DNA from: an uncultured Clostridia bacterium
Lineage (GTDB): Bacteria > Bacillota > Clostridia > TANB77 > CAG-508
Length of the DNA: 64,000 nt
Reading direction: 5' to 3'
Assembly: GCA_934130935.1 (NCBI GenBank)
Contig: CAKOYQ010000008.1
Span: 1,865 to 65,864, forward strand
Below the pieces are notes generated by a model, which saw only the letters and a program-made list of their open reading frames with translations, did no database searches and was not told where the DNA came from. Made by a program: the position numbers and the translations under genes. Within the stretch, counting starts at the first letter, position 1, and the number at the start of each line of letters is the position of its first letter. Positions 6,067 through 40,400 of the stretch are shown here, one piece after another.

Positions 6067-6275
6067 CTTTCTTCTCCTCCATTTTTGCTATATAATATAA
6101 TATATAATTATATGATAAAATGTTTCGGAGTTTTAGTCAATAAGCTTACTCCTGCCAAGATTGTAGTTGCTTTTCATGTGCTTACGGATTTTCATTTTTC
6201 TGGAATTATTTCATTTTTATTACATTTTGTTATCTTTTTTGCTACAAATTATACCAAATTATGCCTTTTTTCTTA

Positions 6276-6467
6276 GGGCAATAGGGGAAAATGGGGACAT
6301 ATGGGGTCGGTTCCATTTTGGCACTGGGACATTTGGGGTCGGTTCCATTTTTGCCCTTTTTATAACATAGATATTTAATATTAATAATTATTGTATTTAA
6401 AAAGGGCAAAAATGGAACCGACCCCAAATGCCCCAGTGCCAAAACGGAACCGACCCCATATGTCCCC
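6276..6467. repeat. GC-rich 190-bp palindromic element: two 64-bp inverted arms (6293-6356 and 6404-6467, 2 mismatches) around a 47-bp AT spacer
   Basis: Each arm holds two tandem units of about 31 bp, GGGACAT(A/T)TGGGGTCGGTTCCATTTT. Read directly from the sequence. Confidence 0.85.
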
Positions 6468-6475
6468 AAAATGTT

Positions 6476-7717: not shown

Positions 7718-7828
7718 CTTCTTCGCCCTTTCTTTTTACAATTTATCATATTTTAACAAATTTTTCAATAAAAAGAGAACTACACATTTAGCTCTCGCCT
7801 AATATGAGTTCCCTTAGCTTATGTTATA

Positions 7829-11782: not shown

Positions 11783-11786
11783 AAGA

Positions 11787-14700: not shown

Positions 14701-16610
14701 AAATCAAGTTGTAAATATAATTGTGTAGCTTCAGTTTCTGGATGTGCTGTTTGCTCACCTTTTAATGTTATTTCTATAACTTTTTTTGTACTATCATATG
14801 TTGAATTTACTGTAAATTCATCTGCATATAATGGTTTTACTCCATTTATATCAACTGTTTCCACAGATGATGGTAATTGTATTCTTATTGTTGGGTTTTT
14901 ATATAAATCATATTGTACTCCATCTGTTATTAATTTAACTCCTAATACAACATCTTTATTTGCAGTCATTGTTGACAATGCATCTCTATTTACTGTAAAT
15001 TCCGCTTTTGATACAGTGTTTTTTACTTCTATTTCTGATTCACTAGAATTTTCAACTACTGTTTGCTCTTGTTTGTCTACTGATGCAGTTCCTGTTATTG
15101 TATTCTTAGTTTTTAGAGTTTTTATAGCATTTAATTGTGACATTGTATATGTATTTTCAGCTATTGCTTTTGTATGAACAATTTCTAGTACCCCTGTAGC
15201 ATTTGGATTACTTGTTGTAATTAATAATTCACTACTAGAATTTTGATAATTTATTATAATATCTCCATTTGCATCTGTTTCCGAATTTTGATTAACTAAA
15301 ACTGTTGAAGTTCCATTTTTAATTTCAATATTACCATCTTGTCCTAATATTTCTAGCATTTTTGCTTTATTAATCTTTGTTGATATATGTTTTGTATTTA
15401 CTGGTAATTCACTGTTTTCTGATATTAATACATCAGGTACTTCTTTAATAGTTATTTTTTCTGGTATTTGTGAATTTGCTATCCTTAATGTAGTTGTAGT
15501 ATTATATTGTGCATCTGTATTTGAAGCAATTTGCCCTTTATATATTCCAGGTGAACTTATTTTTGACTGTGTTGTTATAATTCCATTTGGTTCTTGATTC
15601 TCTATCCCTTTCATATATTTTGCAGTATATTTTGTTCCAGAATTATGTACTATTATTTCTGAATTTACATTTAATTCTAATTTATTTGCATCAACACTTT
15701 CATCATATACAAATGTTACTACCAATTCATCAAAAGAATTTTTATTCCATTTTATTGTACTATCCTCATTTTTTAATATTATCTCAACTTTTCCATCTTT
15801 ATTATTCCAATCTTTTGCTGATAATGATGTTTTACCATTTGTAGCCATTGTTCCTAATGATATAACATCAACTTTCTCTGGTTGTTTTTCACTTAGTATT
15901 GGAACATCCACATTTATAGTTGTTTGTTTTATTGGATATTGATTATCAGATAATCTTGATTTTACTAGTGCTTGTACAATTCTTTTATTTTCATTATTTA
16001 TTGAAAATATTTTGTTTGTTATTATATCTGTTGTCAATTCTGCTGATGTGTTTTGATCTGCTTGTAAATCTAAGTTAACTTGTTTTGTGGCATCAATTTT
16101 TAATCCTTTATATGATGTTTCCATATAAGTTCCCATTAATTTCAAGTCAGATGATTTTAATAACATATCTGATGTTAATGTATCTCCGATTGCTGGTTCT
16201 ATAGCTAATTCAATAGTTTCTGTCTCTCCTGCATTTATTTGTTTTAATTTCACTTTGTTTCCTTCTATGCTTGCAATCGAATTAGATAAAATATTATTTT
16301 TTATCTTGAAATTACTATTTTGTAACTCTAAAGTGGCATCATTTAAATACCCTTCATTTTTTACTGTAATCTCAGCATATAATCTTAAATCTTCTTTTTT
16401 TATACTTGTCTTAAGTGTTTCTACCTTTTCTCCTTTTTCATCTTTAAAGTAAGTGAAGAATTTAATATTTTTATTATTTGTTGCACTTTTATCTGATTGT
16501 ACTTCTGTTGCATAACTTATTATATTTGAACCAAGTGCAAAAAAGTCAGTTGATATTAACATTGCTATCATTAATGCTGATAATATCTTTTTAATTATTT
16601 TTTTCTTCAT
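11787..16610 (-). CDS. Large surface protein, 1607 aa, with DUF11 repeats and SdrD-B/CnaB-like domains and a C-terminal TM anchor
   Basis: Signal peptide present. DUF11-like GDTVKAGEVIKYTMTAKNNGAQKLENIELKSNIPTG and SdrD-B-like NGKAWLDENRNGAKD...GEYAFTKIPNGQYIVLFEYD. C-terminal TM plus basic tail. Separated by 4 bp from the next gene, so same operon. Confidence 0.75.
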   Translation of the reverse strand: MKKKIIKKILSALMIAMLISTDFFALGSNIISYATEVQSDKSATNNKNIKFFTYFKDEKGEKVETLKTSIKKEDLRLYAEITVKNEGYLNDATLELQNSNFKIKNNILSNSIASIEGNKVKLKQINAGETETIELAIEPAIGDTLTSDMLLKSSDLKLMGTYMETSYKGLKIDATKQVNLDLQADQNTSAELTTDIITNKIFSINNENKRIVQALVKSRLSDNQYPIKQTTINVDVPILSEKQPEKVDVISLGTMATNGKTSLSAKDWNNKDGKVEIILKNEDSTIKWNKNSFDELVVTFVYDESVDANKLELNVNSEIIVHNSGTKYTAKYMKGIENQEPNGIITTQSKISSPGIYKGQIASNTDAQYNTTTTLRIANSQIPEKITIKEVPDVLISENSELPVNTKHISTKINKAKMLEILGQDGNIEIKNGTSTVLVNQNSETDANGDIIINYQNSSSELLITTSNPNATGVLEIVHTKAIAENTYTMSQLNAIKTLKTKNTITGTASVDKQEQTVVENSSESEIEVKNTVSKAEFTVNRDALSTMTANKDVVLGVKLITDGVQYDLYKNPTIRIQLPSSVETVDINGVKPLYADEFTVNSTYDSTKKVIEITLKGEQTAHPETEATQLYLQLDLDITLSKLAPSKKDKMVMTYTNENATQYDNGAVENGSIEKEIEISAPSGMITMHNSKTYNVAGIKGINEEKQLVQISNSDAGKEVNFDIALVNNIGEDAKNIRIFGKLPTKGNTITGEEIANTLDTILKGITAQDATIYYSENANATTDIENTSNGWTTNAISNAKVFLIKLNELKAESNYTATYNIQLPTPIQKDAISYAEYEVTYDTNSDKNVTTKSIAIGFATPTEIKLETNISAQVGKDAINSGDTVKAGEVIKYTMTAKNNGAQKLENIELKSNIPTGTVYVTPEENYQHSGTSYYTEHPDMTEVKATIPLLAVGETYTTTYEVRVKSDLTSETQISNKAIATCNDTNIESSELVTKVVSSNIRVTIKNIVEEGNEIVSGGTMEYMVIVENLSNQDVTNLQLQLISENFKMTCLSSGFDMYLIDDEIPEVVNIDKIAANGNTWFKLEGDTTENSDKVSAMAVVKDSSGNAYRSNMLENILEKVDAKISLTSPQDKAYVKEGDIIEYNIEAENTGNIEEVIEIVDNVSEYLEIQAVYLNGQLVLQSTETAKSDTYAEEIVNNLSYKVNVAVGNKAMLKIVARVKNTTENIDAKTITNKAEARLYEMTKATSEEVTHILKITSENIKNVINGKAWLDENRNGAKDVDEKILGGIKVRLYDVSTNDYLKGENGEIIETITNENGEYAFTKIPNGQYIVLFEYDTNEYEPTYYMKDGVDESINSKVVLKNISINGEDKMYAVTDTINLEDNISNINIGLKEKLIFDLQLDKYISRISVQNSKGTKTYDYNDSTFEKIEIHRKQFVGSVVVLEYTIKVKNNGEIVGYANNIVDYLSNGLIFNSELNPDWYLSGNELYTKRLANEPINPGEEKEVKLVLTKTMTNENAGVVNNRAEIAEDYNEYGNSDINSTPNNNISGENDMGAADVIIGVSTGGSMVAYIVLVMINTILIAIAIRLMIKNKIIRIKKERR

Positions 16611-20725: not shown

Positions 20726-22432
20726 GTGATAATTATTAAGCGTTTTATTTTTACACTTATTTTTTTGGTATTAACATCTTTTATTTCTTATCATTTTTTT
20801 CAACCTTTATACCAAGCAACAGAAGTTATTATTTCCTTTGGCTTAAATCCCTCAGACATTTGTTACGATAATCCTTTAATTTGGAAATTTATAAAAATTA
20901 GTTTTATTTTTTTCAATATATTTTCAAATTTTATTATAATTAATTCAATAATTTTAAGATTTCATATTTTTGAAAAAAATATTACACATGTAAAACCAGC
21001 TACGGGAATTAATAATACAACTCAACTATCAAAAACAGATTTACAATTATTAATAGGTTACAATGTTTCTAATAACTCAAAAATATATTTACCAGAATCA
21101 GGATTATATCAAAACTTTTTAATAACTGGCACTATAGGTACTGGTAAAACAAGTTCTGCAATGTACCCTTTTACAGAACAATTAATCAAGTATAATTACT
21201 TACACCCCACTAAAAAATTAGGTATTTTAATATTAGATGTAAAAGGAAATTATTTCAAACAAGTAAAACAATTTGCCACAAAATATCATTTAGAAAAAGA
21301 TATAATAGAAATTGGTTTACACTCTAAAATACGATACAATCCTCTGCATAAACCAAACCTTAATCCAATAGTTTTAGCTAATAGACTTAAAACTATTTTA
21401 TTATTATTTTCAGAAAATAACTCTGAATCTTTTTGGCTTGATAAAGCAGAACAAATTTTAACCGAATGTATTAAACTCTGTAGATTATATAATAATGGCT
21501 ATGTCACTTTTATAGAATTACATAAATTAATTACTGAACCTGATTATTATAAATCAAAAATTGAAATATTAAAAAATTTATTTTATCAATCAAAGTTTTC
21601 TCATAAAGACATTTATGAACTTAATACCGCTCTTGAGTTTTTTGAAAAAGAATTTAACTCTTTAGATCAACGTACTTTAGCTATTCTAAAATCAGAAATT
21701 TCTAGAATTACCAATATATTTATTTCAGATTACAATGTTTCAAAAACTTTTTGTCCAGAAAAAAAAGATTTAAATTTCAAAAGTTTTAGTTCAATGATTC
21801 AAAAAGGAAAAATTGTAATTTTAAATATGAATATTGCAGAATATAAAAATCTTTCAAAAATTATTGCTGCATATTTAAAATTAGATTTCCAGTCAGAAAT
21901 AATGTATAATTTATCACATGCAAAAACTCGACCTTCTGTTTTTATATGTGACGAGTATTCAGAATATGTTACAAAAACAGATGCAGATTTTTTCTCTCTC
22001 AGTCGTGAAGCCAAATGCATAAATATTGTTTCAACTCAAAGTTATTCTTCCCTAAAAAATACACTAAAAGACGAAACTTCTGTAAAAGTTATTATTCAAA
22101 ACTTAATCAATAAAATTTGGTTTAGAACTGATGATATCTTCACAATCGAAGAGGTTCAAAAGCAGTTAGGAAAAGAAGAAAAATTTTATACATCAAAAAG
22201 TATTTCAGAAAATGCTAAAGAAACAAAGTTTAATTATATAACAAATTCTTTAAATTCGCAGAATTCAAGTATCACAGAAAGTTTAAATACCTACACTCAA
22301 AAGGATTTCATTTATGATACAAATTTTTTCACTCAAAATTTGGAAACTTTTTCATCTCTTGCCTTTTTATCAGATGGCTCACATATATTAAAACCATCAA
22401 AATTGAAAATGTTTCCATATTTTGAAAATTAG
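20726..22432 (+). CDS. Type IV secretion coupling protein (VirD4/TraG/TrsK-like), 2 N-terminal TMs
   Basis: Two N-terminal TM helices. Walker A GTIGTGKTSS and Walker B VFICDEYSE; size 568 aa. Confidence 0.65.
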   Translation: MIIIKRFIFTLIFLVLTSFISYHFFQPLYQATEVIISFGLNPSDICYDNPLIWKFIKISFIFFNIFSNFIIINSIILRFHIFEKNITHVKPATGINNTTQLSKTDLQLLIGYNVSNNSKIYLPESGLYQNFLITGTIGTGKTSSAMYPFTEQLIKYNYLHPTKKLGILILDVKGNYFKQVKQFATKYHLEKDIIEIGLHSKIRYNPLHKPNLNPIVLANRLKTILLLFSENNSESFWLDKAEQILTECIKLCRLYNNGYVTFIELHKLITEPDYYKSKIEILKNLFYQSKFSHKDIYELNTALEFFEKEFNSLDQRTLAILKSEISRITNIFISDYNVSKTFCPEKKDLNFKSFSSMIQKGKIVILNMNIAEYKNLSKIIAAYLKLDFQSEIMYNLSHAKTRPSVFICDEYSEYVTKTDADFFSLSREAKCINIVSTQSYSSLKNTLKDETSVKVIIQNLINKIWFRTDDIFTIEEVQKQLGKEEKFYTSKSISENAKETKFNYITNSLNSQNSSITESLNTYTQKDFIYDTNFFTQNLETFSSLAFLSDGSHILKPSKLKMFPYFEN

Positions 22433-22480
22433 TTTTATAATTTTTGCTTAAAAAATTAAATATTTCAATAAGGAGTCACT

Positions 22481-22798
22481 ATGAAAAAATTATTATTTAT
22501 TATTACACTTTTTATTTATATTATATTAATTTTATCCCCTATTGTCCTAGGAGCAACACCTAAATTAGTAAATAAATTAAATGATGCTTTTAAAGATATT
22601 GAAGGGTGGATTATAAAAATATCAACACCTGCAGCTGCTGTGGCTGTTTGTACAGGTGCACTTATGAGAAAATTCAGCTTTGGCGATGAAGAAAAAATCA
22701 GAACTGGAAAGAAATTAATTACAGGTTCATTATTTTCTTATGCTTTTATATTAGCTATAGATTTAATATTATCTGCAATTCAATCTTTAATTGGATAG
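22481..22798 (+). CDS. VirB2/TrbC-like small membrane protein (putative conjugative pilin), paralogous to 50010, 63088 and 63602
   Basis: Signal peptide plus two hydrophobic helices. Similar to the other small pilin-like ORFs in this window. Confidence 0.5.
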   Translation: MKKLLFIITLFIYIILILSPIVLGATPKLVNKLNDAFKDIEGWIIKISTPAAAVAVCTGALMRKFSFGDEEKIRTGKKLITGSLFSYAFILAIDLILSAIQSLIG

Positions 22799-22806
22799 GT
22801 GATTAA

Positions 22807-23685
22807 ATGGAGAGTAATTCAAATATAACTTCAAATATTATTGAAGCAGTTAACACTATCTTAGGAAATTTATTTTCTTCAATAGATAGCAATGTTTATA
22901 ATGTTCTTGATGACATTACTTTTATAAGTTCAGATATAATTAATGATTCTTATTTTGAAAAAATATTAGGAACTTCAGCATCCAATGGAATTTTATTAAT
23001 ATCAAATTCTCTACTTTTTGGTTTTTTATTATATTATTCTATAAAATACCTATTTGCACATTTTACATTTCAACAAATAGAAAAGCCTTCGCAATTTATT
23101 TTTAAATCTATTATTTTTGGTATTTGTATTAATTTTTCATATTTTTTTGTCGGAGAAGCCTTAAATTTTTTATCTAATATATCTCTTGCAATTAGAGGGA
23201 TTGGAGAAGATTTATTTCATAAAAACATTTGCTTTTCTGAACTGATTTTAGAAATAAACAATGATATTTCTATAACCTCCTCTTCTTTAGATATTTTTTC
23301 ATTAGATGGAATTATTAAAGCTTCACTTACAATGTCTTTATTAAATCTAGTTTTTACATATTCTTTTAGATATGTAATGATTAAAATTTTTATTTTACTT
23401 ACACCTTTTGCAATTTTGTCATTAATATTAGAACATACTTCATGGTTTTTTAAAGCTTGGGTTCGCAACTTATTTTCTTTATTATTTATACAGATTATTG
23501 TCTCTATTGTTTTATTAATATTATTTTCTATGGATTATTCTTCTAATAATTTAATGACTAAATTCATTTATATTGGAGCAATTTATGCTCTAATAAAATC
23601 AAATTCTTTTGTTCGTGATTTCATCGGTGGAGTTTCCACAACTTTTACTCAAAATGTGGAAAACTTATTTAAAAAATCACATTAA
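22807..23685 (+). CDS. Polytopic membrane protein, VirB6/TrbL/TrsL-like
   Basis: About 6 predicted TM helices across 292 aa. Sits inside a T4SS gene string. Confidence 0.45.
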   Translation: MESNSNITSNIIEAVNTILGNLFSSIDSNVYNVLDDITFISSDIINDSYFEKILGTSASNGILLISNSLLFGFLLYYSIKYLFAHFTFQQIEKPSQFIFKSIIFGICINFSYFFVGEALNFLSNISLAIRGIGEDLFHKNICFSELILEINNDISITSSSLDIFSLDGIIKASLTMSLLNLVFTYSFRYVMIKIFILLTPFAILSLILEHTSWFFKAWVRNLFSLLFIQIIVSIVLLILFSMDYSSNNLMTKFIYIGAIYALIKSNSFVRDFIGGVSTTFTQNVENLFKKSH

Positions 23686-23699
23686 TATAGTTTAATATT

Positions 23700-23881
23700 T
23701 TCCAAGACTAAAATATAATCCTTCCATTACATTCCTCGATTCATTTCGAGATTTAAGAAATTCTAATTTATTTTATGGCACCCTTCCACTCTCGTGAACT
23801 CTTTCCATAAAATTCATAAGAATTTCTAAAATCTCTCCAATCATATTCGTCATTCCATTTCAGGATTATATTTTAGTCTTG
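23700..23881. repeat. 22-bp perfect inverted repeat (TTCCAAGACTAAAATATAATCC / GGATTATATTTTAGTCTTGGAA) bracketing 138 bp; interior also partly palindromic
   Basis: Read directly from the intergenic sequence between the VirB6-like and TcpE-like genes. Confidence 0.85.
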
Positions 23882-23914
23882 GAATTATATTAAATCTATA
23901 GGAAAGGAGCTTTT

Positions 23915-24199
23915 ATGAAATTTATAATTCCTCAAAATTATAATTTTAAAAATAAAATATTTGGTATTTTAGATTATTCAACAGCTTTTTTAAATTTATT
24001 TTGGTATACACTTAACTTTATTATACTTAACTTATTTTTTAACAACTGGAACATAAAAATATTTTTTCTTATTTCTCTATGTCTTCCATTAACTTTATTT
24101 AGCTTAGTTGGATTTAATGGAGAATCTGTTGTTTATGTCCTTAAATATGTTATCAAATATCTACTTAGGCCAAAACTATATTTATTTAAAAAATTTTAA
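23915..24199 (+). CDS. TcpE/VirB3-like small membrane protein, 94 aa
   Basis: N-terminus FIIPQNYNFKNKIFGILDYSTAF resembles the TcpE-like ORF at 50478 (YNLPRNVKGEGRILFIFSTKSL). Two TM helices. Confidence 0.5.
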   Translation: MKFIIPQNYNFKNKIFGILDYSTAFLNLFWYTLNFIILNLFFNNWNIKIFFLISLCLPLTLFSLVGFNGESVVYVLKYVIKYLLRPKLYLFKKF

Positions 24200-24333
24200 T
24201 TTTATCTCCTATTTTTTTATTTTAGACTTGATTTTATTTTGTAAAATGATATAATTCTATTTAGCTTATAGGAGAAAATAGTTTAGCTTTATTTCTAAAC
24301 TATATTCGTTCCTTTGGGGGGAGGAATGATTAA

Positions 24334-25389
24334 ATGAAATTAGAACAACCAGAAATTCCACTGTTATTTTCTGAGACAGTTGTTTCAGATATATTTTTTG
24401 CTGAATATTTATCTCAGATGCCATCAAATAGTGTTAAAGTTTATTTATATATGATGTTTCTATCAAAATATAAAAAAGATATAAAATTAAATGATTTATC
24501 CAAAAAACTAGCACTTCCGCTAAAAGATATAAATGATGCTATTTTATATTTGGATACTAATGGATTAATTATAAAAAAAGAGGCTGGTTATATTGTTGTA
24601 AATCTACAAGAATTAACTCTTCATAAATTATATACACCAAATTTAACCGCATCTCCTGAAAAAGTTGCTAATATTGCCAAAAACAAAGCTCGTGCTAAAG
24701 TTATAACTCATATAAATAATGCATATTTTCAGGGAATTATGGGACCATCATGGTACAATGATATTGATTTATGGTTCACAAAATATAATTTTGATGATCA
24801 AGTTATGATTGCACTTTTTGATTATTGTTATAACCGTTCTGCACTTCATAAAAAGTATGTACAAACAGTTGCAGAAGCCTGGGGAAATAATAATATTCAA
24901 ACATGGAATGACTTAGATTTATACTATCAAAAACAGGAAAAATTGGTGAAAATAAAAAGGACAATTACTAAGAAACTTGGAAAAACTTCTCTTACTCAAT
25001 ATGAAGAAGCATATATTGAAAAATGGGTTATTGATTTTGGTTATGATTTAAATATTATTGAAATCGCTCTTAAAAGAACCACTTTTAAATCAAATCCTAC
25101 ATTTGAATATTTCAATAATATAATTACAGACTGGCATGATAGGAATTTAAAAACATCAAATGAAATTCTTGCATTTATAGAACAACGTAATAAACAAAAG
25201 AAAGATACTAAAAAACTAGAAAAACAAGTTGCAAAAGCGTCTTTTGATCAAAGACAATATGATAATCTGGCATTTTTATACGCAAATGCAGGAATATCTC
25301 CTGTAGAATTTCCAAATAATTCAAATGCGAATGAACCTCAAGCATCTGCATCAGTTTTTTCTAATATTAAAGGAGATTTAAATGGATAA
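24334..25389 (+). CDS. DnaD-domain replication initiation protein (DnaD/DnaB-like)
   Basis: N-terminal winged-helix-like region (VKVYLYMMFLS) and a DnaD-domain region (MIALFDYCYNRSALHKKYVQTVAEAWG). Confidence 0.6.
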   Translation: MKLEQPEIPLLFSETVVSDIFFAEYLSQMPSNSVKVYLYMMFLSKYKKDIKLNDLSKKLALPLKDINDAILYLDTNGLIIKKEAGYIVVNLQELTLHKLYTPNLTASPEKVANIAKNKARAKVITHINNAYFQGIMGPSWYNDIDLWFTKYNFDDQVMIALFDYCYNRSALHKKYVQTVAEAWGNNNIQTWNDLDLYYQKQEKLVKIKRTITKKLGKTSLTQYEEAYIEKWVIDFGYDLNIIEIALKRTTFKSNPTFEYFNNIITDWHDRNLKTSNEILAFIEQRNKQKKDTKKLEKQVAKASFDQRQYDNLAFLYANAGISPVEFPNNSNANEPQASASVFSNIKGDLNG

Positions 25390-26401
25390 TGAAATTTTAT
25401 CTAAATTAATAGCAGAATATGACCAAAAAAAACGTAGAGCAGAACTTGATTTACAAGAGCGTAAAGAAGAACTTTATAAAAAAATTCCTCGTCTGCAAGA
25501 AATTGAAATTGAATTAAATAATTTTGCTATTAATACTGCAAAAAACATTTTAAAAGGGTCTTCTTCCCTTTCTTTAGAGGCTTTAAATTCCAAAGTTGCA
25601 GATTTAAAAATTGAAAAAAATAGAATATTAAAAGAACATAATATACCAAGTACTTATTTAGAACCTTTCTACGAGTGCAACATTTGCAAAGATACTGGAT
25701 ATATTCAAACTGGTACTTCAGCATCTAGTTTATGTTCTTGTTTAAAACAGAAACTATTAGATATATCTTATAATAAATCAAATATTTCTAACCTTAGTAA
25801 AGAAAATTTTGCAACTTTTAATGAAAATATTTTTTCAGATAAAATAGAAACTGAAAAATTTGGAATTAATATTTCACCACGTCAAAATATTATAACAATA
25901 AAATCAAAATGCATAGATTTTGTTAAAAACTTTGATAATCCTGATACTCATAATTTATTATTTACAGGAAATACTGGACTTGGAAAAACTTTTATGAGTA
26001 ATTGTATAGCAAATGAATTAATAAAGAATGGAAAAAGCGTACTTTATCAAACAGCCCCTGTTTTATTAGAAACTGTTATTGACAAAAAATTTAATAAGTA
26101 TAAAAATTCTGTTCAAGATGATTTTTATAAAAATGTTTTAGAGTCAGATTTATTAATTATTGATGACCTAGGGACAGAATGTTTAAATAGCATGAAATTA
26201 AGTGAATTATTTACAATTTTAAATACTCGTTTGTTAAATTTTAATAATAAAGTAACAAAAACTATAATTTCTACTAATTTAAATATTAATAATATTTTTA
26301 AAAATTATGAAGAAAGAATTGGTTCTCGTATTGCTGGATTTTATGACATTTATTATTTTTTTGGTGATGATTTAAGACTTAAGCCAAAACATTTTAATTA
26401 G
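25382..26401 (+). CDS. DnaI/DnaC-like helicase-loader ATPase with N-terminal Zn-binding CxxC...CxC
   Basis: Zn-binding pattern CNICKDTGY...CSCLK. Walker A TGNTGLGKTF and Walker B LLIIDDLG. Overlaps the previous gene by 8 bp. Confidence 0.65.
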   Translation: MDNEILSKLIAEYDQKKRRAELDLQERKEELYKKIPRLQEIEIELNNFAINTAKNILKGSSSLSLEALNSKVADLKIEKNRILKEHNIPSTYLEPFYECNICKDTGYIQTGTSASSLCSCLKQKLLDISYNKSNISNLSKENFATFNENIFSDKIETEKFGINISPRQNIITIKSKCIDFVKNFDNPDTHNLLFTGNTGLGKTFMSNCIANELIKNGKSVLYQTAPVLLETVIDKKFNKYKNSVQDDFYKNVLESDLLIIDDLGTECLNSMKLSELFTILNTRLLNFNNKVTKTIISTNLNINNIFKNYEERIGSRIAGFYDIYYFFGDDLRLKPKHFN

Positions 26402-26485
26402 ACAAAAGGCATAATATATAGTTCTTATATAGTGTATTTATTTGCACTTACTATATTATCTTGCTTTTTATATAAAATTTTCTAC

Positions 26486-26523
26486 AAAAAAGGATTCCCT
26501 AACTCGGAACCCTTTTTATTTTT
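26486..26523. terminator. Bidirectional terminator hairpin (AGGATTCCCTAACTCGGAACCCT) flanked by A and T runs
   Basis: Lies between the convergent DnaI-like gene and gyrA. Confidence 0.6.
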
Positions 26524-28977
26524 TTATTTACTTTCTTCTGACTGAGCAATTTCTGGAGTTAATGTTTCCATACTTACAACTTTTCCACCATCTGTCGTTC
26601 TCATCAAAGTTACACCTTGTGTTGAGCGTCCTAACACACTTATATCTTTTACTTTAAGTCTTATTATTGTTCCTTTATCAGTTATAAGCATTACATCTTC
26701 ATCATCTGTTGCTATTCTTGCTCCAACTAATTTACCTGTTTTTTGAGTTACCTTATATGTTATAACACCTTTTCCTCCTCGAATTTGTACTCTGTATTCA
26801 TCAAGTTCTGTTCTTTTTCCAAATCCGTTTTCTGTAATTGCAAGTAATGTTGCTTTTCCACCTGCAATAATTGATTCCATTCCTATAACTTCATCATCTT
26901 CATCAATCCTAATTCCTATAACACCTTGTGAAACTCTACCGATTGGACGGACATCTTTTTCGTCAAATGTAATACACATTCCATTTCTTGTAACAAGAAT
27001 TACATTATCTTCTCCATCAGTCAATCTAACTGCAATTAACTCATCATCTTCTTTTAATGTTATTCCTTGCAATCCTGTCTTACGTGCTGAATTATATTCA
27101 GCCAAAGCTGTTTTCTTTATTAATCCATTTTTTGTTGACATTAATAAGTATTTACCTTCTGCAAAATTTTGAATTGGTATAACTGCTGATACTTTTTCTC
27201 CTGCGTCTAAACTTAATAAGTTTACAATCGCTGTTCCCCTAGCAGTTCTACCTGCTTCTGGTACTTCATATCCTCTTAGTTTATACAATTTTCCTTTATT
27301 AGTAAAGAATAAAATAGTGTCATGTGTAGAGGCTGTAAATATTTGTTTTACAAAGTCTTCCTCTCTTGTAGCAATTCCTGTTATTCCTTTTCCTCCACGT
27401 TTTTGACTTCTATATGTATCTATTGGCATTCTTTTAATATATCCAAAATGTGTTAAAGCTATAACTGTCTGTTCTTCTTTTATCAAATCTTCAACATCGA
27501 TTTCTCCCTCTGCTGCTACAATCTTTGTTTTTCTATCATCTCCAAACTTATTTTTAATTTCAATAAGTTCTTCTTTTATAATATCAAATACTAATTTTTC
27601 ACTATTTAAAATTGCTCTTAAATGTTCAATTAATTCCATTAATTGTTTATATTCTTCTTCAATCTTTTCTCTTTGCAATCCTGATAGTGTTTTTAGTCTC
27701 ATGTCCAAAATTGCTTGTGCTTGTATATCTGTTAATCCAAATCTTTCCATCAATCTTTCTTTTGCATCATCATAAGAGTTACGGATAATTGCAATTACCT
27801 CATCTATATTATCAATAGCAATTCTTAAACCTTCTAATATATGAGCTCTTGCTAATGCTTTATCCAAATCAAATTGAGTTCTACGCAAAATAACAGTTTT
27901 TCTATGATCAATATAACAATCTAAACATTGTCTTAATGTTAATATTTTTGGCTCTCCATCTACTAAAGCCAACATTATTACTCCAAATGTATCTTGCATT
28001 TGTGTATTTTTATATAATTGATTTAATACTACTTGAGGATTAGCATCTCTTTTAAGTTCCATTACAATTCTAACTCTTTCTTTTCTATCTGATTCATCAC
28101 GTAATTCAGAGATTCCTTCTATCCTCTTCTCTCTAGTTAATCTTGCAATATTTTCAATTAGACGAGCTTTATTTACTTGATATGGTAATGATGAAACTAT
28201 TATCCTTTGCTTATTTCCACTCATTTCCTCTATCTCTGCTTCTGCTCTCATTATAATTTTGCCTCTTCCAGTTCGATATGCCTCTTTAATTCCCTCTAAA
28301 CCAAGAATCATTCCTCCTGTTGGAAAATCAGGTCCTTTTATTATTTGCATTAAATCTTCATCTGTTACATTATCATCATCAATAATTTTTATTATTCCAT
28401 CCACAATTTCTGTTAAATTATGTGGTGGTATATTTGTTGCCATTCCTACAGCTATTCCTGATGAACCATTAACTAATAATGCTGGTATCTTTGAAGGTAA
28501 AACTGTTGGTTCTTGCAATCTATCATCATAGTTTGGCATAAAGTCAACTGTATTCTTTTCTATATCTACTAACATTTGCTCAGCTATTTTTGACATTCTT
28601 GCTTCTGTATACCTCATCGCAGCAGCACCATCACCATCTATTGAACCAAAATTACCATGTCCATCTACTAGCATATATCTCATTGAAAAGTCTTGTGCCA
28701 TTCTTACCATCGCATCATATACTGATGCATCTCCATGTGGATGATATCTTCCTAATACAGAACCTACTGTATTTGCACATTTCCTATATGGCTTGTCTGA
28801 GGTAATTCCATCTTCATGCATAGCATACAATATTCTTCTATGTACTGGTTTTAATCCATCTCTTACATCTGGTAATGCTCTTGATACAATAACACTCATT
28901 GCATAATCGATGTAAGCTGTTTTCATCTCTTGTTCAATATCTCTTTGAATTATATTTCCATCTTGTCTTTCATCCAT
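26524..28977 (-). CDS. gyrA: DNA gyrase subunit A
   Basis: 817 aa. N-terminal [24 protein letters not shown] and the [11 protein letters not shown] region are canonical GyrA. Confidence 0.97.
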
Positions 28978-29074
28978 AGTTTTCTACCTCTTTCTTTTTT
29001 CTTATACTTTTGTATTATATTATACTAATCCTTATTTTGCAAGGGTTTTGGGTAATTATTTTCTCATTTTTTAC

Positions 29075-29290
29075 TTATTTTTTTAAGCTTTTTATTATAA
29101 ATCTAACTCCATCCTTAAAGCCTTGTTTATAATATAATTCACTTATTATATTCATTTTTATATTATTCCTTTCTTCTTCGCTATTAACCTTTATTTGTTT
29201 TATTTTATAGTGATATTCTCTCTGTATATTTTCTTCTATATCCTCATATCTTTCTTCAAAAATTCTATTTAACATTTCATCATCAAACAT
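29075..29290 (-). CDS. Hypothetical 71-aa acidic protein
   Basis: Listed in the ORF track only; divergent from the XRE regulator gene. Confidence 0.3.
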   Translation of the reverse strand: MFDDEMLNRIFEERYEDIEENIQREYHYKIKQIKVNSEEERNNIKMNIISELYYKQGFKDGVRFIIKSLKK

Positions 29291-29464
29291 ATTTTTCTCC
29301 TATATTTTATATTCTATTTTTTATCTTTTACATATAATTTATTTTTATTCCCACTAATTCTTATTATCCTCTATAATTACTGTGTATGTGAAAAATATGC
29401 TATTTGCTTATTATATGTTGACAATTTTCGCTATATAATGTAGAAAAATCTTTGAGGTGAGCAT

Positions 29465-29815
29465 ATGCAATTTAATAGAGAAAATATCGATATTGGTGAA
29501 AGGCTACGTAGTATAAGAGAGGGCATGAACATGACTAGAGAACAATTCTCTGAAAAAATTGACATTACAGATTCTTTTTTAGGTCAAATTGAAAGAGGTG
29601 AACGTGCTTTAAGTGTAAAAACTTTAAAAAAAGTTGTAAAATATACTGGCGTTTCCGCAGATTATTTATTATTCGGGCAAGATAACAATAATAAAACAAT
29701 TCAAAAAATAAATAATATTTTAACAGTAAATTCTGATGCAACATCTGATTTTATTTATCATATTGTTATGTGTTCAAATGACTTCTGTAAAAAAATTTTA
29801 GAAGAAAATAAATAA
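29465..29815 (+). CDS. XRE-family helix-turn-helix transcriptional regulator
   Basis: HTH LRSIREGMNMTREQFSEKIDITDSFLGQIERGER. RBS GAGGTGA upstream of the start. Confidence 0.8.
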   Translation: MQFNRENIDIGERLRSIREGMNMTREQFSEKIDITDSFLGQIERGERALSVKTLKKVVKYTGVSADYLLFGQDNNNKTIQKINNILTVNSDATSDFIYHIVMCSNDFCKKILEENK

Positions 29816-29854
29816 GAACTTATACTAAATACATGCACCTTTTTTGCATGTATT

Positions 29855-30556
29855 TTAGCTTGCAAGATTATTTGCTAATTTTATCTCATTTTCTGTGATA
29901 TTAAAATTTTGCCCATTATTTTTTATTAAATTATGAAGTGTTTTAACCCTTTTTGTTTCTTTAATAATATTTTCCAATGGAATTATTTTTTCTGACTCCT
30001 GCTCAATCTTTTTTAATTCTTTTGTCATTTTCTCAAAATCTCTTTGGTTATAATATTCTTTCCAGTTTTTTAAATATTTTTCTAATTTCTCAATAGTATT
30101 TGTCTGTTTATTTAACTCAGTTTTTATATTTTTAGTTACATTATTTAATAATACATTTTTTCCATTTTTTATAAGATTATTAACATTTTTATTTATATAC
30201 CCATTTTGATATGTTTTATTTATTACTTTATCTAATACACCTGAAATTGAATCTATAATTCCTCCACTACCTATTGCAATTTTTACTTGTTCAATATTTT
30301 CAAAATTTCCACTAATTATTCCATTAGCACTTTTCCAAAAATCTATAGCAGAATTTATTGCTGTATCTATGCCTGATTTTAACCCATTTTGTAATAAAGC
30401 ATTTTTTATATCAATTATTTGATTTTCTATTAAATCTGGTAATATTGCTCTTAGTCCTATATCCAAAGCACTATTTATTGTTCTTCCAATAACATTATTT
30501 AAAAAATTTTTTTTCTCTATATTAATATTATTATTTATTTGATTTTCTATTTCCAT
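29855..30556 (-). CDS. Hypothetical protein, 234 aa (start moved to the internal Met MEIENQ)
   Basis: RBS AGGAAAGGA sits 8 nt upstream of ATG 30556. This start avoids the 50-bp overlap with the upstream gene that the track start 30625 would create. Confidence 0.45.
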   Translation of the reverse strand: MEIENQINNNINIEKKNFLNNVIGRTINSALDIGLRAILPDLIENQIIDIKNALLQNGLKSGIDTAINSAIDFWKSANGIISGNFENIEQVKIAIGSGGIIDSISGVLDKVINKTYQNGYINKNVNNLIKNGKNVLLNNVTKNIKTELNKQTNTIEKLEKYLKNWKEYYNQRDFEKMTKELKKIEQESEKIIPLENIIKETKRVKTLHNLIKNNGQNFNITENEIKLANNLAS

Positions 30557-30575
30557 ATATTTTTCCTTTCCTTTT

Positions 30576-32399
30576 TTATTTATTTTTTTCTTCAATAATT
30601 TCTTTTTCAAAATCACTTGCTTCAATATTTATTAAAATATGCTCATCACCAACAAATGTCAAACATTCTCCTCTTCTTAAAGATTTTATTTCTATTTTTT
30701 CTTTTTCTGATAAATTAGAATATTGTGATAATACCTTAATATTTTCTTCTTCTAAGGAAAAAAATGTTTTTATGCTAGAATTATTTAAAATACTTTTTCC
30801 GTAAGTTCCATTTTCTAAACTAAATAAATCTGAAATATCTTGTGTAATTGCAACACTACTCCCTCCATATTTTCTAATAGTTTTAAAAATCTTATAAATA
30901 AATTTTGCAACTTCTTTATTTGATGTAACACCTATTAATCTCCATATCTCATCTAAATAAATTGCTTTTTTTATTTTTCTATTTATTTTTATTTTATCCC
31001 AAAATAATTCTGTAAATAAATACATTCCATATTTCATATTTTCTTCACCTAATTCATATACATCAGCAATAATTAATTTTTTATTTAATTCTATATTTGT
31101 ATAATTATTAAAAAATTTCAATGAGCCTTTAATAAATGGTATCAATTTTATTTTAAATTTTTTTGTTTTTTCATCATTTAAATTATTATATAAATCTTCC
31201 AATATTGGCATATCTTTTGTTATTTTAAATTTACCCTTTTTATATAATGTTTTATCATTAAATGTAATATTTTTCTTTTTATATGTTTCAATTAATTTTT
31301 CTTCTAAAATTGCTTTTTCTTCCTCATTTAACTCTCCAAAAATTAAATTAAAAAATCCAATTAATTTTCCTATTTTTGTTGCTAAATATCCGTGCTCATT
31401 TTCTTCTATGCTTTCTTTTCTAATATCAAAAATATTTATATAATTTTCAGAAGTAGGTCCTATTTTTATAATTGTGCCATTTAATTTTTTAGCAATATTA
31501 TTATATTCTTTTTCTGGGTCTATTACATATTGTTCAATTCCTAATAATGTATTTCTTAAAATTAATAATTTTGTATAAAAAGACTTCCCAGCTCCACTTG
31601 TTCCAAAAATACACATATTTGCATTTTTATATTTACTGGTATTATATCTATCAATTAAAATTAAAGAATTATTATACATATTATTCCCTATATAAATCCC
31701 CTTTTCTTCAACTATTGATGATGACAAAAACGGATATGTACTTATTAATCCAGATGTCAAAATATTCCTTTTTCCAACTTGTTTTAAATCTTCATGATTT
31801 TCTAATATAGGTAAACATGAAATAAAAATTTGCTCTTGTCTAAAATTTGCTCTTCTTGTTTGTAAGCCTTTACTTTGCAATATTCCTTCTATTTTATCTA
31901 AATTATATTCTAATTCTTTTTTATCTTTTGCAAAAACATTTAAATAAATATATAAAAAATATATATTTTCATTATTTATTTGAATTTCCTTTCTTATATA
32001 TTTTGCATCATTATATGTAAAAGCTGCTATATCTATATCCTGTCTGTTTTCACTTGATTGTTTTAATTCAACTCCAACATTTCCTATATTATAGGTCAAT
32101 TCTTTAATTGTTTTAGCTGTTTCCTGTTTTTCATAAAATATTGAAATATTCATATTTATATTTGTTTCTATTAAAGATTTTAAAATTAATTCATTATATT
32201 CTCTATAATAATTTACTATAATTATTCCAGAATAAAAATAATCATCTATCTCCAAAAATTTAGGATTATTTAAATTAATATATGTTGGAGAAATAAAATC
32301 CTTTTCATTAAAAAATCCTTCATATAATTTTATATTATTTTTTTCTCCCTCTTTTTTTAATATTTTATCTTTAATATTGTTTATTATTTTTTTATTCAT
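30576..32399 (-). CDS. VirB4/TrsE/TraE-like conjugation ATPase (AAA-like/DUF87), 607 aa
   Basis: Walker A IFGTSGAGKSF, then DPEKEY, Walker B LDEIW, and ITQ. Clearly paralogous to ORF 51980..53941. Confidence 0.75.
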   Translation of the reverse strand: MNKKIINNIKDKILKKEGEKNNIKLYEGFFNEKDFISPTYINLNNPKFLEIDDYFYSGIIIVNYYREYNELILKSLIETNINMNISIFYEKQETAKTIKELTYNIGNVGVELKQSSENRQDIDIAAFTYNDAKYIRKEIQINNENIYFLYIYLNVFAKDKKELEYNLDKIEGILQSKGLQTRRANFRQEQIFISCLPILENHEDLKQVGKRNILTSGLISTYPFLSSSIVEEKGIYIGNNMYNNSLILIDRYNTSKYKNANMCIFGTSGAGKSFYTKLLILRNTLLGIEQYVIDPEKEYNNIAKKLNGTIIKIGPTSENYINIFDIRKESIEENEHGYLATKIGKLIGFFNLIFGELNEEEKAILEEKLIETYKKKNITFNDKTLYKKGKFKITKDMPILEDLYNNLNDEKTKKFKIKLIPFIKGSLKFFNNYTNIELNKKLIIADVYELGEENMKYGMYLFTELFWDKIKINRKIKKAIYLDEIWRLIGVTSNKEVAKFIYKIFKTIRKYGGSSVAITQDISDLFSLENGTYGKSILNNSSIKTFFSLEEENIKVLSQYSNLSEKEKIEIKSLRRGECLTFVGDEHILINIEASDFEKEIIEEKNK

Positions 32400-32418
32400 A
32401 TTTTTCCTTTCTACCTTT

Positions 32419-32994
32419 TTAATATTTATCCAAAAATTTTTTTAAATTAAAAAATGAAAATAAAATATTTTTTGTTTCATCTCTACTACATTCTAAAACT
32501 ATATTTCCACATCTTATCAAACAATCTTTTATTTTAAAATATTTTTCATTTAATTCTTGAATAATATTTTCTTCTAAATTTTCTGTATTATTTTTAATAA
32601 TTAAATAAATATTTTTTGATGCAGATTTGTTTTTATTATTTTTTTCTTTAATAAATTCAACATAATTTTGTGAATATTTTTTTATTATTTTATTTTTTTC
32701 TCTTTGAGATATTTTTTGAATATTTTCTATGTGTTCACTTAAATCTTCTTTTTTACTTTGAATTAAAATTTGAATATCAAAATTACATGTTTTTAAAAAA
32801 ACTTTATAAGAATTTAAAATCGATTCTTTTTCTAATTGAGTTTTTAAATTAAAATTTATTGGAATTACCTTTAATATTTTTATATATTTATTTTTTTTTA
32901 CTTTTATAATACCTCTTTCTAAAATTCTTTCTATGGGTATCCACTTTTGTATAGATCTAATCTTTCTCACCTCCAATATACCAAGCTGCAACAT
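32419..32994 (-). CDS. TrsD-like protein (VirB4 N-terminal-like domain as a separate ORF), 191 aa
   Basis: KWIPIERILERGIIKVKKNKYIKILKVIPINFNLKTQLEKESIL aligns with FDTVRDNMIIQKNGNRYLMVVECQGINYDLMSGVEKTSVE of ORF 50818..52029. It sits immediately upstream of the ATPase. Confidence 0.5.
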   Translation of the reverse strand: MLQLGILEVRKIRSIQKWIPIERILERGIIKVKKNKYIKILKVIPINFNLKTQLEKESILNSYKVFLKTCNFDIQILIQSKKEDLSEHIENIQKISQREKNKIIKKYSQNYVEFIKEKNNKNKSASKNIYLIIKNNTENLEENIIQELNEKYFKIKDCLIRCGNIVLECSRDETKNILFSFFNLKKFLDKY

Positions 32995-33133
32995 AAAAAA
33001 ATATTGAAATAAATTAAAATTTTAAGAATTAATTTTATAATTAAAAGAAAAATAAAACTATTTATATGATATTTTTATTATATAATGAATTAGTAAAAAA
33101 AGCAAGAAAAATCGTTCGACAAAAATCGACAAA

Positions 33134-33164
33134 AGGGCAAAAACGGAACCGACCCCAAATGTCC
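33134..33164. repeat. Lone copy of the GGGCAAAAA(C/T)GGAACCGACCCCAAATG(T/C)CCC unit also found four times in the 6276-6467 palindrome
   Basis: Direct match with 2 mismatches to 6404-6434. Confidence 0.8.
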
Positions 33165-33625
33165 CTCAAAAAAATTTTAAATTTTTTGTATAGAAAAAAT
33201 TTTTCTGCACATAATATGTGTATAAGGTTAACATCAGTTGAGTGAAGAGTATTGATGGATTATTTATTAGTTTGTTAATATTCGAGCAAAGATGTATATT
33301 GGTTCATTTTTATGGATTAATATATGTCGGCGATAAAAATATATTATATGTATGTAAGCTGTATTTTATTTAAATTTTCAAGGATTATTTTTATATTTTA
33401 TATATGGTTAAATTATATGTAATATATTTGAACTAAGATTATTCTTGTATTATATGGGATTGTTATTAGTCCCTCGAGGATGAATATGGTTTCTACTAGT
33501 GCATTTGTAGTCGAGCAACTGATTAATATATGTGGTGTATGGTTTATTTGTATAGCAATATGCATTAGATCAAACCACTATATATATTAGTCTGAGTTAA
33601 GATTGGTTTTGGCTTTATAGATAAT

Positions 33626-33670
33626 AGGATTCCACTTGATATGGAATCCTATTAATTTTTTTCTTTTTTT
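33626..33670 (+). terminator. Rho-independent terminator for plus-strand transcription (AGGATTCCA-loop-TGGAATCCT then T-rich tail)
   Basis: 9-bp perfect stem followed by ATTAATTTTTTTCTTTTTTT. Orientation suits a rightward transcript from the ORF-free region 33.2-33.6 kb. Confidence 0.55.
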
Positions 33671-33685
33671 AAATTATATATTATT

Positions 33686-35617
<1,932 letters not shown>

Positions 35618-36755: not shown

Positions 36756-37193
36756 TTGTGTATAATTTTTTGTATTTTTTATTATTTTCTATTATTTTTT
36801 AATATAAAATTATATTACTAAAAAATAAAAACGTCTTATTTTTGATTTTCGTGCGTCGTTTTTTTTGCATTTTTTTATTTTTTTATATTTATTTTATTTT
36901 TTTTATTATTTTTTAATTAATTAAAATAAATTTTTTTATTTTTTTATTTAATTAATTATTTAATTTTTTTTATTTTTAAAAAATATTTTTTATTTTTCTT
37001 TTTTATTTTAAGTAAACTTTAGTAAACCTTTTTTTGTTTTATAAAATTTATTAAAATCTTTTTTATTCTATTTTATTCTTTTTTTTTTTATTTTATTCTA
37101 ATTTATTTGTTTTTCATTTATTTTTTAGTTAATTTATTTTTAATTTATTTTATTTTTTGTTTTTTATATTATGTTTATTTTTTAAATAATAAA
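36756..37193. repeat. About 440-bp low-complexity, strand-asymmetric T-rich tract with phased T-runs and short tandem repeats, with no ORF
   Basis: About 95% A+T, with T-runs of 6-10 every 10-11 bp. Sits where the small S4-domain yaaA gene normally is, between dnaN and recF. Confidence 0.8.
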
Positions 37194-37220
37194 TTTGGCC
37201 AGAAACATTCTCTGACCAAA
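37194..37220 (-). terminator. Candidate dnaN terminator hairpin (TTTGGCCAGA-loop-TCTGACCAAA), followed on the minus strand by an A/U-rich tail
   Basis: 10-bp stem with one G-U pair, directly after the dnaN stop. Confidence 0.45.
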
Positions 37221-37223
37221 CCT

Positions 37224-40029: not shown

Positions 40030-40400
40030 ATTAAAACATCCTTTCAAATAAAAAAATATAAAGTTATCCACAAAGTTTTCCACAGATGTGGATAACTTTG
40101 TAATAATAATGTAATAAACAAGGAATTTTCTACGAACAGACATTTTTAAACAGTGTTTTTTATAAATCCCCTATCTTTTCTTTTTCAGTATAATATCAAA
40201 ATTTTACACAATAAGTCAAGATGTTTGTGGATAAATTAAAAAAAACTGTGGATAATTATGAAAAATCTTGTGGAAAACTATAGTTTTATGACAAAATTAT
40301 TACAAAAAAATAAAATTTTAATTTTTTATATAATAATTTTTTTCAAAAAGCAATAGAGGAAATTATAGAAATTAAAAAAATTTAAATTTTATTAAAAAGT
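40030..40400. promoter_or_regulatory. oriC upstream part: DnaA boxes plus AT-rich unwinding region; rpmH promoter TTGACA-17-TATAAT at 40402-40430
   Basis: TTATCCACA at 40064, TTTTCCACA, and TGTGGATAA at 40087, 40224 and 40246; TGTGGAAAA at 40269. An AT-rich stretch follows. Confidence 0.85.

Follow-up and report, generated by a model that had tools for sequence, protein, structure and literature searches.

The 64-kb stretch of DNA analysed here (the window; part of contig CAKOYQ010000008.1 in assembly GCA_934130935.1, from an uncultured Clostridia bacterium of order TANB77, family CAG-508) covers the region of the replication origin and carries, on both sides of the DNA gyrase gene gyrA, the genes of a type IV secretion system (T4SS). 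These genes form two blocks. Block A consists of TrsD, VirB4 and a protein designated p256, and block B of VirD4, a VirB2-like pilin, a VirB6-like protein and a PrgI/VirB3-like protein. Related loci compared with the window are referred to by L-numbers (L004, L071, L089 and so on). The comparison points to an ancient, chromosomal, vertically inherited apparatus derived from a T4SS that would still be functional. The features are as follows, with the evidence used for each assignment.

20726-22432, plus strand: VirD4-type coupling ATPase, 568 aa (Pfam, transmembrane helices, Walker A)
22481-22798, plus strand: VirB2-like pilin, 105 aa (PF18895, TrbC/VirB2, topology)
22807-23685, plus strand: VirB6-like polytopic membrane protein, 292 aa (sub-threshold PF04610, gene context)
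23915-24199, plus strand: PrgI/VirB3-like membrane protein, 94 aa, two transmembrane helices (PF12666, gene context)
24334-26401, plus strand: DnaD-domain protein (351 aa) and DnaI/DnaC-like helicase loader (339 aa)
26524-28977, minus strand: gyrA, the essential gene between the two T4SS blocks (translation)
29075-29815: variable spot, with a 71-aa open reading frame (ORF) on the minus strand and an XRE regulator on the plus strand (29465-29815)
29855-30556, minus strand: p256, an all-helical soluble partner protein of 233 aa (conservation, AlphaFold2; no family match)
30576-32399, minus strand: VirB4 ATPase, C-terminal 607-aa part (NCBIfam, Pfam, PDB profiles)
32419-32994, minus strand: TrsD-like protein, 191 aa (the N-terminal VirB4 domain as a gene of its own)
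33126-33170, plus strand: lone copy of a GC-rich repeat upstream of the TrsD gene, outside the T4SS (repeat count)
33686-35617, minus strand: gyrB, left neighbour of block A (translation)
38674-40143, minus strand: dnaA (translated ORF)

The GC skew reverses at about 40 kb. Left of this switch dnaN, recF and gyrB lie on the minus strand, like dnaA, and to its right are rnpA, yidC, jag and mnmE. The distance of 4.7 kb between gyrB and gyrA is filled by the TrsD-like, VirB4 and 233-aa genes on the minus strand and the XRE gene on the plus strand. The plus-strand genes beyond gyrA (VirD4, VirB2-like, VirB6-like, PrgI/VirB3-like, DnaD and DnaI) converge on it. A first-pass annotation, made from the sequence alone, had reported these ORF positions and the separation of gyrB from gyrA by a TrsD-like/VirB4/XRE insert, and ORF calls and translations bear it out. 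There is no yaaA-like ORF between dnaN and recF. The position of this S4-like gene is a 468-bp spacer (36756-37223), and the enclosing 36-37 kb composition window has 15% GC. A terminator-like hairpin lies beside gyrB (33622-33654), and the GC content is reduced over 30-33 kb. In a promoter scan of this AT-rich DNA, sites were no more frequent than in shuffled sequence. PADLOC and PHROGs searches gave nothing specific, the matches being limited to mad8, DndH and a terminase P-loop.

In block A, the 607-aa VirB4 protein matches NF045971 (CD1110-family VirB4) with an E value of 4.8e-87, P-loop_TraG with 6.3e-17 and the VirB4 C-terminal domain in PDB entry 4AG5 with 1.6e-42. Its Walker A (GTSGAGKS) and Walker B (AIYLDE) motifs are both conserved in the orthologues. 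The N-terminal VirB4 domain is encoded separately: the 191-aa protein aligns to positions 2-129 of the CD1110 VirB4 model (1.6e-10, NCBIfam) and gives a weak TrsD match, and its ORF lies 19 nt upstream of VirB4 in a different frame. All relatives show the same split, as do the 13 chromosomal VirB4s that form the clade described below. The third gene, which had been called as a 234-aa ORF within the insert, is real, but it encodes a conserved partner protein rather than filler. Nearly all loci that have sequence upstream of gyrA carry it at this position, and its dN/dS (ratio of nonsynonymous to synonymous substitution rates) is 0.29-0.45 against five close relatives. The AlphaFold2 model of p256 is a helical bundle (pLDDT 80), for which fold comparison gave no informative match.

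Next to p256, the variable spot differs among the species. The XRE regulator (HTH_3, 1.5e-14, Pfam) is found in only some related species, and in several the spot holds kilobases of other DNA. In the more distant species of the window's clade (e.g. L071), VirB4 and p256 are separated by a TadZ/ParA-like gene of 483 aa, which has been lost from the window and its nearest relatives. Gaps of 2.6-4.4 kb with 11-14% GC are seen between virB4 and p256 in five relatives (L004:4800-9200, L028:3900-7900, L013:2818-5823, L016:5593-8223 and L022:5370-7989). Those of L004 and L028 have no ORF of at least 100 aa over most of the gap, except for a 345-aa ORF at the start of the L028 gap, and those of L013, L016 and L022 begin with an N-terminus resembling the TadZ-like gene. 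They may represent a decayed or low-complexity-expanded gene. The possibility that they are rRNA operons was rejected, as they contain no rRNA, no runs of N and few long ORFs at 11-14% GC. In two species virB4 itself is interrupted at codon 298/299 of the window protein by an ORF-less group II intron (L032:5306-6639 and L037:1152-2076), with RF02012 near the 5' end and RF00029 (domain V-VI) at the 3' end, exon 2 restarting right after the Rfam match. An intein was considered for this interruption and rejected, as the frames differ and the insert is a group II intron.

In block B, VirD4 matches TrwB_AAD_bind (1.6e-8, 34.3 bits, cutoff 20.5) and TraG-D_C (2.8e-7, 30.9 bits, cutoff 22), and has two N-terminal transmembrane helices and a Walker A motif, GTIGTGKT, that is intact in all 49 orthologous high-scoring segment pairs covering it. 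With VirD4 above the Pfam gathering scores and VirB4 at 4.8e-87, the T4SS homologies suggested at first reading hold. Among 72,556 plasmid records, this VirD4 matched 16 and VirB4 1,511; judged by its matches, the window VirD4 is of an unusual subtype. The 105-aa pilin candidate has a signal peptide and two hydrophobic (transmembrane) helices, and matches PF18895 (T4SS_pilin) with 2.8e-4 and TrbC/VirB2 with 4.4e-3. PF18895 is matched by 17 of the 17 proteins in the set formed by the window pilin and 16 homologues (best 6.2e-6), and TrbC by five, all of these matches being under the Pfam gathering score of 26.6 (21.3 bits for the window protein).

The 292-aa protein has at least four transmembrane segments. 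PF04610 (TrbL/VirB6) is matched sub-threshold by 13 of its 25 homologues (best 4.8e-4), and its top PDB profile match is TrwI, the VirB6 of R388, at a weak E value of 0.47. Homologues are located in the T4SS clusters of L081, L083 and L089. An AlphaFold2 model of this protein was unusable (pLDDT 39), the alignment being shallow with 86-100% identity. For the 94-aa protein, 5 of 24 orthologues match PF12666 (PrgI) weakly, with E values of at least 0.0048, and in L081, L083 and L093 a homologue immediately precedes TrsD/VirB4. Between the VirB6-like and PrgI-like genes there is a 185-bp element (23700-23884) with perfect 23-bp terminal inverted repeats (TTCCAAGACTAAAATATAATCCT). It is present as a single copy and in the window only, the corresponding gap in close relatives being 28-55 nt; it could be a miniature inverted-repeat transposable element or an invertible segment.

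The DnaD and DnaI genes stand between block B and gyrA. DnaD matches DnaB_2 with 1.2e-22, and DnaI matches the NCBIfam equivalog PRK06835 with 8e-101 (337 bits vs cutoff 215). They had been taken as part of an inserted element; the equivalog match speaks otherwise, and they are probably the host's own helicase-loading pair, not element cargo. Their linkage to block B is seen in 80 species (see below) and again in L089, with DnaD. In 29 related species the DnaI-like gene shows a +1 frame change at one shared point inside the Walker A motif (e.g. L016:12960-12990 and L022:12890-12920, with 27 further loci). The site reads GGT TTA CGG TAA G(AC), with the variants CTT CGG AAA and TCT CGG AAA, and skipping of the C restores G-L-G-K-T. 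The window dnaI is in frame, its homologous site lying at about 25967-25990. The CGG codon is used 0 times in 13,787 codons of the window, and 5 times in 143,233 and 18 times in 94,728 in relatives. The pattern resembles programmed +1 frameshifting at a hungry codon, apparently conserved within a replication gene that is essential.

To evaluate the conservation of the locus, relatives were retrieved by gyrA, giving 80 species-representative genomes with gyrA 83-96% identical to that of the window. All are uncultured gut Clostridia, Candidatus Merdicola among them, a genus placed in order TANB77, family CAG-508 (2026 survey, PMC13106387). As far as their contigs extend, all 80 share one gene order: gyrB, TrsD, VirB4, p256, (XRE), gyrA, DnaI, DnaD, PrgI-like, VirB6, VirB2 and VirD4, followed by tRNAs, SDR and VanW. 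Both blocks are retained together in every species examined. One of the relatives, L071, is a closed 1.70-Mb chromosome assembled with hifiasm from long reads, and it has this order as well; a mis-assembly, raised as a concern at the outset, is therefore excluded. It should be mentioned that the same order in close relatives had been named beforehand as the observation that would speak against integration of an element, and it is what the 80 species, the closed genome included, show.

The T4SS genes are under purifying selection. Against the five close relatives, at dS of about 0.5-1.3, dN/dS is 0.07-0.12 for VirB4, 0.10-0.22 for VirD4, 0.06-0.19 for VirB2 and 0.09-0.19 for VirB6. The values for recF (0.11-0.23), DnaD and DnaI are similar, and gyrA gives 0.03-0.08. 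The Walker A motif is unbroken in each orthologue covering it. In 34 of 41 loci for VirB4 and 44 of 52 for VirD4, one tblastn match alone covers 90% or more of the query, the exceptions being mostly contig ends or introns. The genes are whole, and not fragments as they had first been described. Pairwise distances correlate with gyrA distances (Pearson 0.70-0.79 for VirB4, VirD4, VirB6 and VirB2; 0.80 for gyrB), and in no species pair does the T4SS distance fall below the gyrA distance, the minimum VirB4/gyrA ratio being 1.22. As the T4SS distances track those of gyrA and are never smaller, there is no sign of exchange between species. The T4SS gene set is inherited vertically and is intact in at least 80 species of small-genome gut Clostridia.

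More distant relatives were examined for the origin of the two blocks. An exhaustive VirB4 search yielded a small set of proteins of about 600 aa at 43-72% identity; the next matches, at 39% identity or less, are mostly full-length proteins of 740-1260 aa. In a neighbour-joining tree, the window VirB4 and 12 other split chromosomal VirB4s form a clade apart from 112 mostly full-length ones. Locus L089, with gyrA 68% identical to that of the window, encodes VirB4 (50%), VirD4 (44%), VirB2 (54%), VirB6 (31%), PrgI-like (39%) and p256 (36%) homologues. Its order is dnaA, dnaN, recF, gyrB, two genes, TrsD, VirB4, two genes, p256 and gyrA, and then a G5 protein, VirD4, VirB2, VirB6, PrgI-like and DnaD. 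Unlike in the window, block B of L089 is on the strand of gyrA, from which it follows that one of the two lineages underwent an inversion of the whole of block B. In L086 (VirB4 45%), TrsD-VirB4 is also near gyrB. On these comparisons the capture and rearrangement of the T4SS genes would be older than the divergence of lineages at 68% gyrA identity.

A further group of loci places the TrsD-VirB4 pair beside Tad-type genes. In L090 (gyrA 69%), TrsD and VirB4 are followed by a TadZ-like ATPase, a TadA/CpaF-like ATPase, a TadB-like protein, a p256 homologue and then gyrA. The same TrsD-VirB4-TadZ-TadA-TadB-p256 module, closed by its p256 homologue, is found in L091 and L092, not near gyrA; the organisms of these two loci have sporulation-associated genes (Spo0E-like and SpmA/B-type 'Gate' proteins). 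VirD4, VirB2 and VirB6 were not detected nearby in L090, L091 or L092. L083 has, in one run, VirB6, one gene, PrgI-like, TrsD, VirB4, a ParA-like gene and a T2SSE ATPase. The hybrid clusters (L090:9500-16120, L091:2277-8776, L092:9466-15758, L083:262-12744 and L094:4798-20327) are chromosomal in L090-L092 and mobile-looking in L094, where VirD4, a pilin and the genes of a full Tad pilus adjoin the cluster. This recurrent combination of TrsD-VirB4, TadZ/TadA/TadB-like genes and a p256 homologue in Clostridia is apparently undescribed.

Two loci carry the parts of both blocks in a single cluster. L081 has a relaxase, MobC, a PrgI-like protein, an unsplit VirB4, a pilin, VirD4, an M23 hydrolase and a VirB6-like protein, with identities to the window of 43% for VirB4, 34% for VirB2, 40% for VirD4 (E 1e-100), 31% for the 94-aa PrgI-like protein and 22% for VirB6. 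L094 has topoisomerase III, VirD4, a pilin, a 286-aa membrane protein, a C39-type hydrolase, small proteins, TrsD, VirB4 and the Tad genes, with identities of 42% for VirD4, 41% for the pilin and 32% for VirB4; its VirB6 and PrgI are assigned from position only. Since the order in L094 is that of block B followed by block A, the blocks of the window are best explained as the two halves of a single captured operon, and the comparison suggests that this operon was of conjugative type and anciently captured. The proposal made at first reading, that complementary halves of one system lie on either side of gyrA, is supported by these two clusters.

The genes expected of a mobile element were also sought. 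No relaxase was found by Pfam or NCBIfam in the ORFs scanned, nor in the 80 species over about 10 kb to each side of gyrA, and tblastn with the relaxase, MobC and M23 hydrolase of L081 gave no homologue in the window or in the related loci searched. There is no recombinase or integrase ORF in 19.5-34 kb. No att-like repeats were detected, the repeat search giving low-complexity chance repeats only. The copy of GGAACCGACCCC at 33145, which had been thought to mark the edge of the insert, is real, being one of five in the window with 0 expected by chance. The repeat is absent from all 86 related loci searched, so it is species-specific and marks no conserved boundary. The other four copies of this GC-rich repeat (GGGCAAAAAYGGAACCGACCCCAAATGYCCC) are at 6290-6460, in two inverted pairs around an AT-rich spacer.

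Among known systems, the chromosomal T4SS of Patescibacteria, the candidate phyla radiation (CPR), invites comparison. Its VirB4 clade is nested in the MPF_FATA class, the commonest neighbour of virB4 is TrsD, the system includes PrgI/VirB3, and its VirB6 matches the VirB6 and not the PrgH profile (Quinonero-Coronel et al. 2025, PMC12102498). The same study reports VirB2-like pilins of PF18895 and PF04956, a relaxase almost never, a frequent location close to dnaA, dnaN and rnpA, and rare inter-class exchange, which indicates vertical descent. Among Gram-positive T4SSs, VirB2-type pilins have been described in Patescibacteria only (2025 review, PMC12857230). The window shares the separate TrsD and VirB4, a candidate PrgI/VirB3, a putative VirB6 with sub-threshold matches to the TrbL/VirB6 profile, a PF18895 pilin, the lack of a nearby relaxase, vertical inheritance and the position beside dnaA/dnaN. 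Its host is also monoderm with a reduced genome and a conserved type IV/Tad pilus (PMC11680825). In contrast, the host is a Clostridia lineage, VirD4 is tightly linked (mostly remote in CPR), there is one pilin gene instead of arrays, the set is split in two around gyrA, and p256 is present, with a TadZ-like ATPase in relatives. The window T4SS thus resembles that of Patescibacteria in its parts list, its local lack of a relaxase and its oriC location.

Compared to the MPF_FATA systems (TrsD-TrsE of pGO1/pSK41; CD1110/CD1115 of CTn2), the window shares the VirB4 class (NF045971, 4.8e-87), a separate TrsD gene as in pGO1, a candidate PrgI-like VirB3 and a monoderm setting without an outer-membrane core. 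It differs in that the locus lacks a relaxase, a VirB1-type hydrolase, a VirB8-like protein and an adhesin and is not mobile, in having a VirB2-like pilin, and in a VirD4 of neither the CD1115 nor the TcpA type. L081 and L094, uncharacterised conjugative-type clusters on metagenome contigs, have homologous parts (VirD4 40-42%, VirB2 34-41% and VirB4 32-43% identical). Unlike the window, L081 has a relaxase, MobC and an unsplit VirB4, L094 has topoisomerase III and a full Tad pilus set, and both have a wall hydrolase (M23 or C39-like). Vertically inherited chromosomal T4SSs that are encoded at several loci and serve a host function instead of self-transfer are known from the rvh system of Rickettsiales, ComB of H. 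pylori and the gonococcal genetic island (GGI) of Neisseria. The window T4SS is likewise chromosomal, vertical and scattered over more than one locus, with a proposed host function. These three are diderm systems with VirB7, VirB9 and VirB10, ComB has no VirD4 and GGI has a relaxase, and none is known to be arranged around gyrA at oriC.

Taken together, we consider it probable (about 0.7) that the locus encodes a vertically inherited, functional, T4SS-derived apparatus that is ancient and chromosomal. The apparatus would derive from a Firmicutes conjugative element and would have joined the core genes of a clade of gut Clostridia that are uncultured and have small genomes, comprising TANB77/CAG-508 and deeper relatives, with the ancestral single operon now separated into two blocks by gyrA. 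In the proposed mechanism, VirB6 and PrgI would form the membrane channel, TrsD and VirB4 would energise assembly, the processed VirB2-like pilin would make a filament or conduit through the wall, and VirD4 would feed a cytoplasmic substrate into the channel; the oriC-adjacent position may raise gene dosage. The gene identities, vertical descent, purifying selection and local lack of mobility genes are observed; the cooperation of the two blocks and the nature of the transported substrate we infer. As no relaxase, oriT protein, integrase or wall hydrolase is found at the locus, the apparatus probably does not support self-transfer. By analogy with the role proposed for the Patescibacteria T4SS, a host function in cell-to-cell contact or exchange is more likely. 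The 'domesticated ATPase module' offered by the first-pass annotation as its second option comes nearer the truth as regards domestication, but ATPases alone are too narrow a description of what is a whole T4SS-type set.

Several observations weigh against this reading. It is built on sequence comparison throughout, and the VirB4 tree carries no support values. The VirB6 and PrgI identities come from sub-threshold hidden Markov model matches and gene context. A wall hydrolase and a VirB8-like protein are normally needed by Gram-positive T4SSs, and no VirB1-type hydrolase or VirB8-like scaffold domain was found in the ORFs of 20-34 kb and their immediate left neighbours. VirB4 or VirD4 is frameshifted in a few metagenome-assembled genomes. 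A relaxase may be encoded elsewhere in the genome, the searches having covered the window and related loci. In deeper relatives TrsD-VirB4 stands beside TadZ/TadA/TadB and not VirD4/VirB2/VirB6, so the two blocks may not form a single machine.

The relaxase bears on an alternative that we regard as unlikely, namely that the system is still conjugative in trans, with a relaxase and oriT located elsewhere using the T4SS for DNA export or chromosome mobilisation. VirD4 is strongly constrained and is 40-42% identical to the VirD4 of mobile-looking clusters, block B is linked to DnaD/DnaI, and relaxases are often encoded distant from virB4 (PMC12102498). Against this stand the lack of a relaxase in the window and around gyrA in the 80 species, and the strict vertical inheritance in small genomes, which suits a housekeeping role better.

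The Tad-type neighbours lead to another, improbable alternative, in which the blocks are two unrelated, non-cooperating systems: TrsD-VirB4-p256 would be the remnant of a Tad-type pilus and VirD4-VirB2-VirB6-PrgI that of a T4SS. The gene order of L090, L091 and L092, where VirD4, VirB2 and VirB6 were not detected nearby, speaks for this, and in the window the blocks have separate promoters and strands. However, VirB6, PrgI, TrsD and VirB4 are contiguous in L083 apart from one intervening gene, L081 and L094 have all parts in one cluster, and the blocks are co-retained in every species examined. VirB4 is moreover the universal partner of VirB3 and VirB6, which in the window lie in the other block.

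A decaying, functionless relic of an old element, hitch-hiking in a strongly syntenic region, would be in keeping with the missing relaxase, hydrolase and VirB8-like genes and the occasional frameshifts. It would also fit the loss of TadA and TadB, and of the TadZ-like gene in the window's subclade, which in some species is replaced by extremely AT-rich, ORF-poor stretches. Yet dN/dS of 0.07-0.22 over dS of about 0.5-1.3, near-full-length VirB4 and VirD4 in 34 of 41 and 44 of 52 loci, invariant ATPase motifs and retention down to 68% gyrA identity make it highly improbable. A recent integration of a conjugative or replicative element at oriC, inverted or split around gyrA, or an assembly artefact, would account for the T4SS homologues, the opposite strands, the lower GC at 30-33 kb and the species-specific repeat at one edge, but deserves next to no credence, being refuted by the same gene order in relatives as an ancestral arrangement (80 species and the closed long-read genome), with divergence that tracks gyrA, no integrase, relaxase or att repeat, and an edge repeat absent in relatives. 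Of the original idea of an integrated element rearranged around gyrA, the conjugative ancestry with a split or inversion remains plausible from L081, L094 and L089, and the recent date is contradicted by the 80-species synteny.

Beyond the T4SS, the window encodes on the minus strand at 1-16610 three giant predicted proteins in a row. One extends beyond the end of the window and exceeds 2029 aa, and the other two have 1317 and 1607 aa. The 1607-aa protein has SdrD_B and DUF11 surface-protein domains, and the 1317-aa protein has no Pfam match. The row adjoins a PGA_cap gene and a VanW/G5 protein; VanW and SDR genes stay beside block B in most relatives.

TANB77 bacteria have been characterized as uncultured, with reduced genomes and a separately conserved Tad pilus cluster, and have been linked to cancer immunotherapy response via the Tad pilin; T4SS genes are not mentioned in that study (Kim et al. 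2024, PMC11680825). Our literature search found no description of this gene cluster in TANB77 or other Clostridia, and a Patescibacteria-like chromosomal T4SS in Clostridia (TANB77/CAG-508) appears to be undescribed so far. In the patescibacterium Southlakia epibionticum, the T4SS is reported to be essential for epibiotic growth (Wang et al. 2023, as cited in PMC12857230). It is conceivable, if doubtful, that the TANB77 T4SS is the Firmicutes counterpart, as a sister or source lineage, of the Patescibacteria T4SS, and is used with the Tad pilus for an obligate cell-to-cell association with other gut bacteria. If so, such an association would account for the uncultured status and reduced genome of TANB77, and the machine would belong to a wider undescribed family of VirB4/TrsD and Tad-type hybrids in Clostridia.

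With this finding, the set of parts known from Patescibacteria, lacking a relaxase and located next to oriC, would belong to the core of a Clostridia order, and the mobile relatives with the same type of pilin and VirD4 would be a concrete candidate source of the CPR system. The canonical dnaA-dnaN-recF-gyrB-gyrA block would here have been stably broken by a captured apparatus over a very long time. The function of such a T4SS could be studied in TANB77 as a second lineage, and a second conserved surface machine in these bacteria would bear on cultivation strategies and on their interaction with the host.

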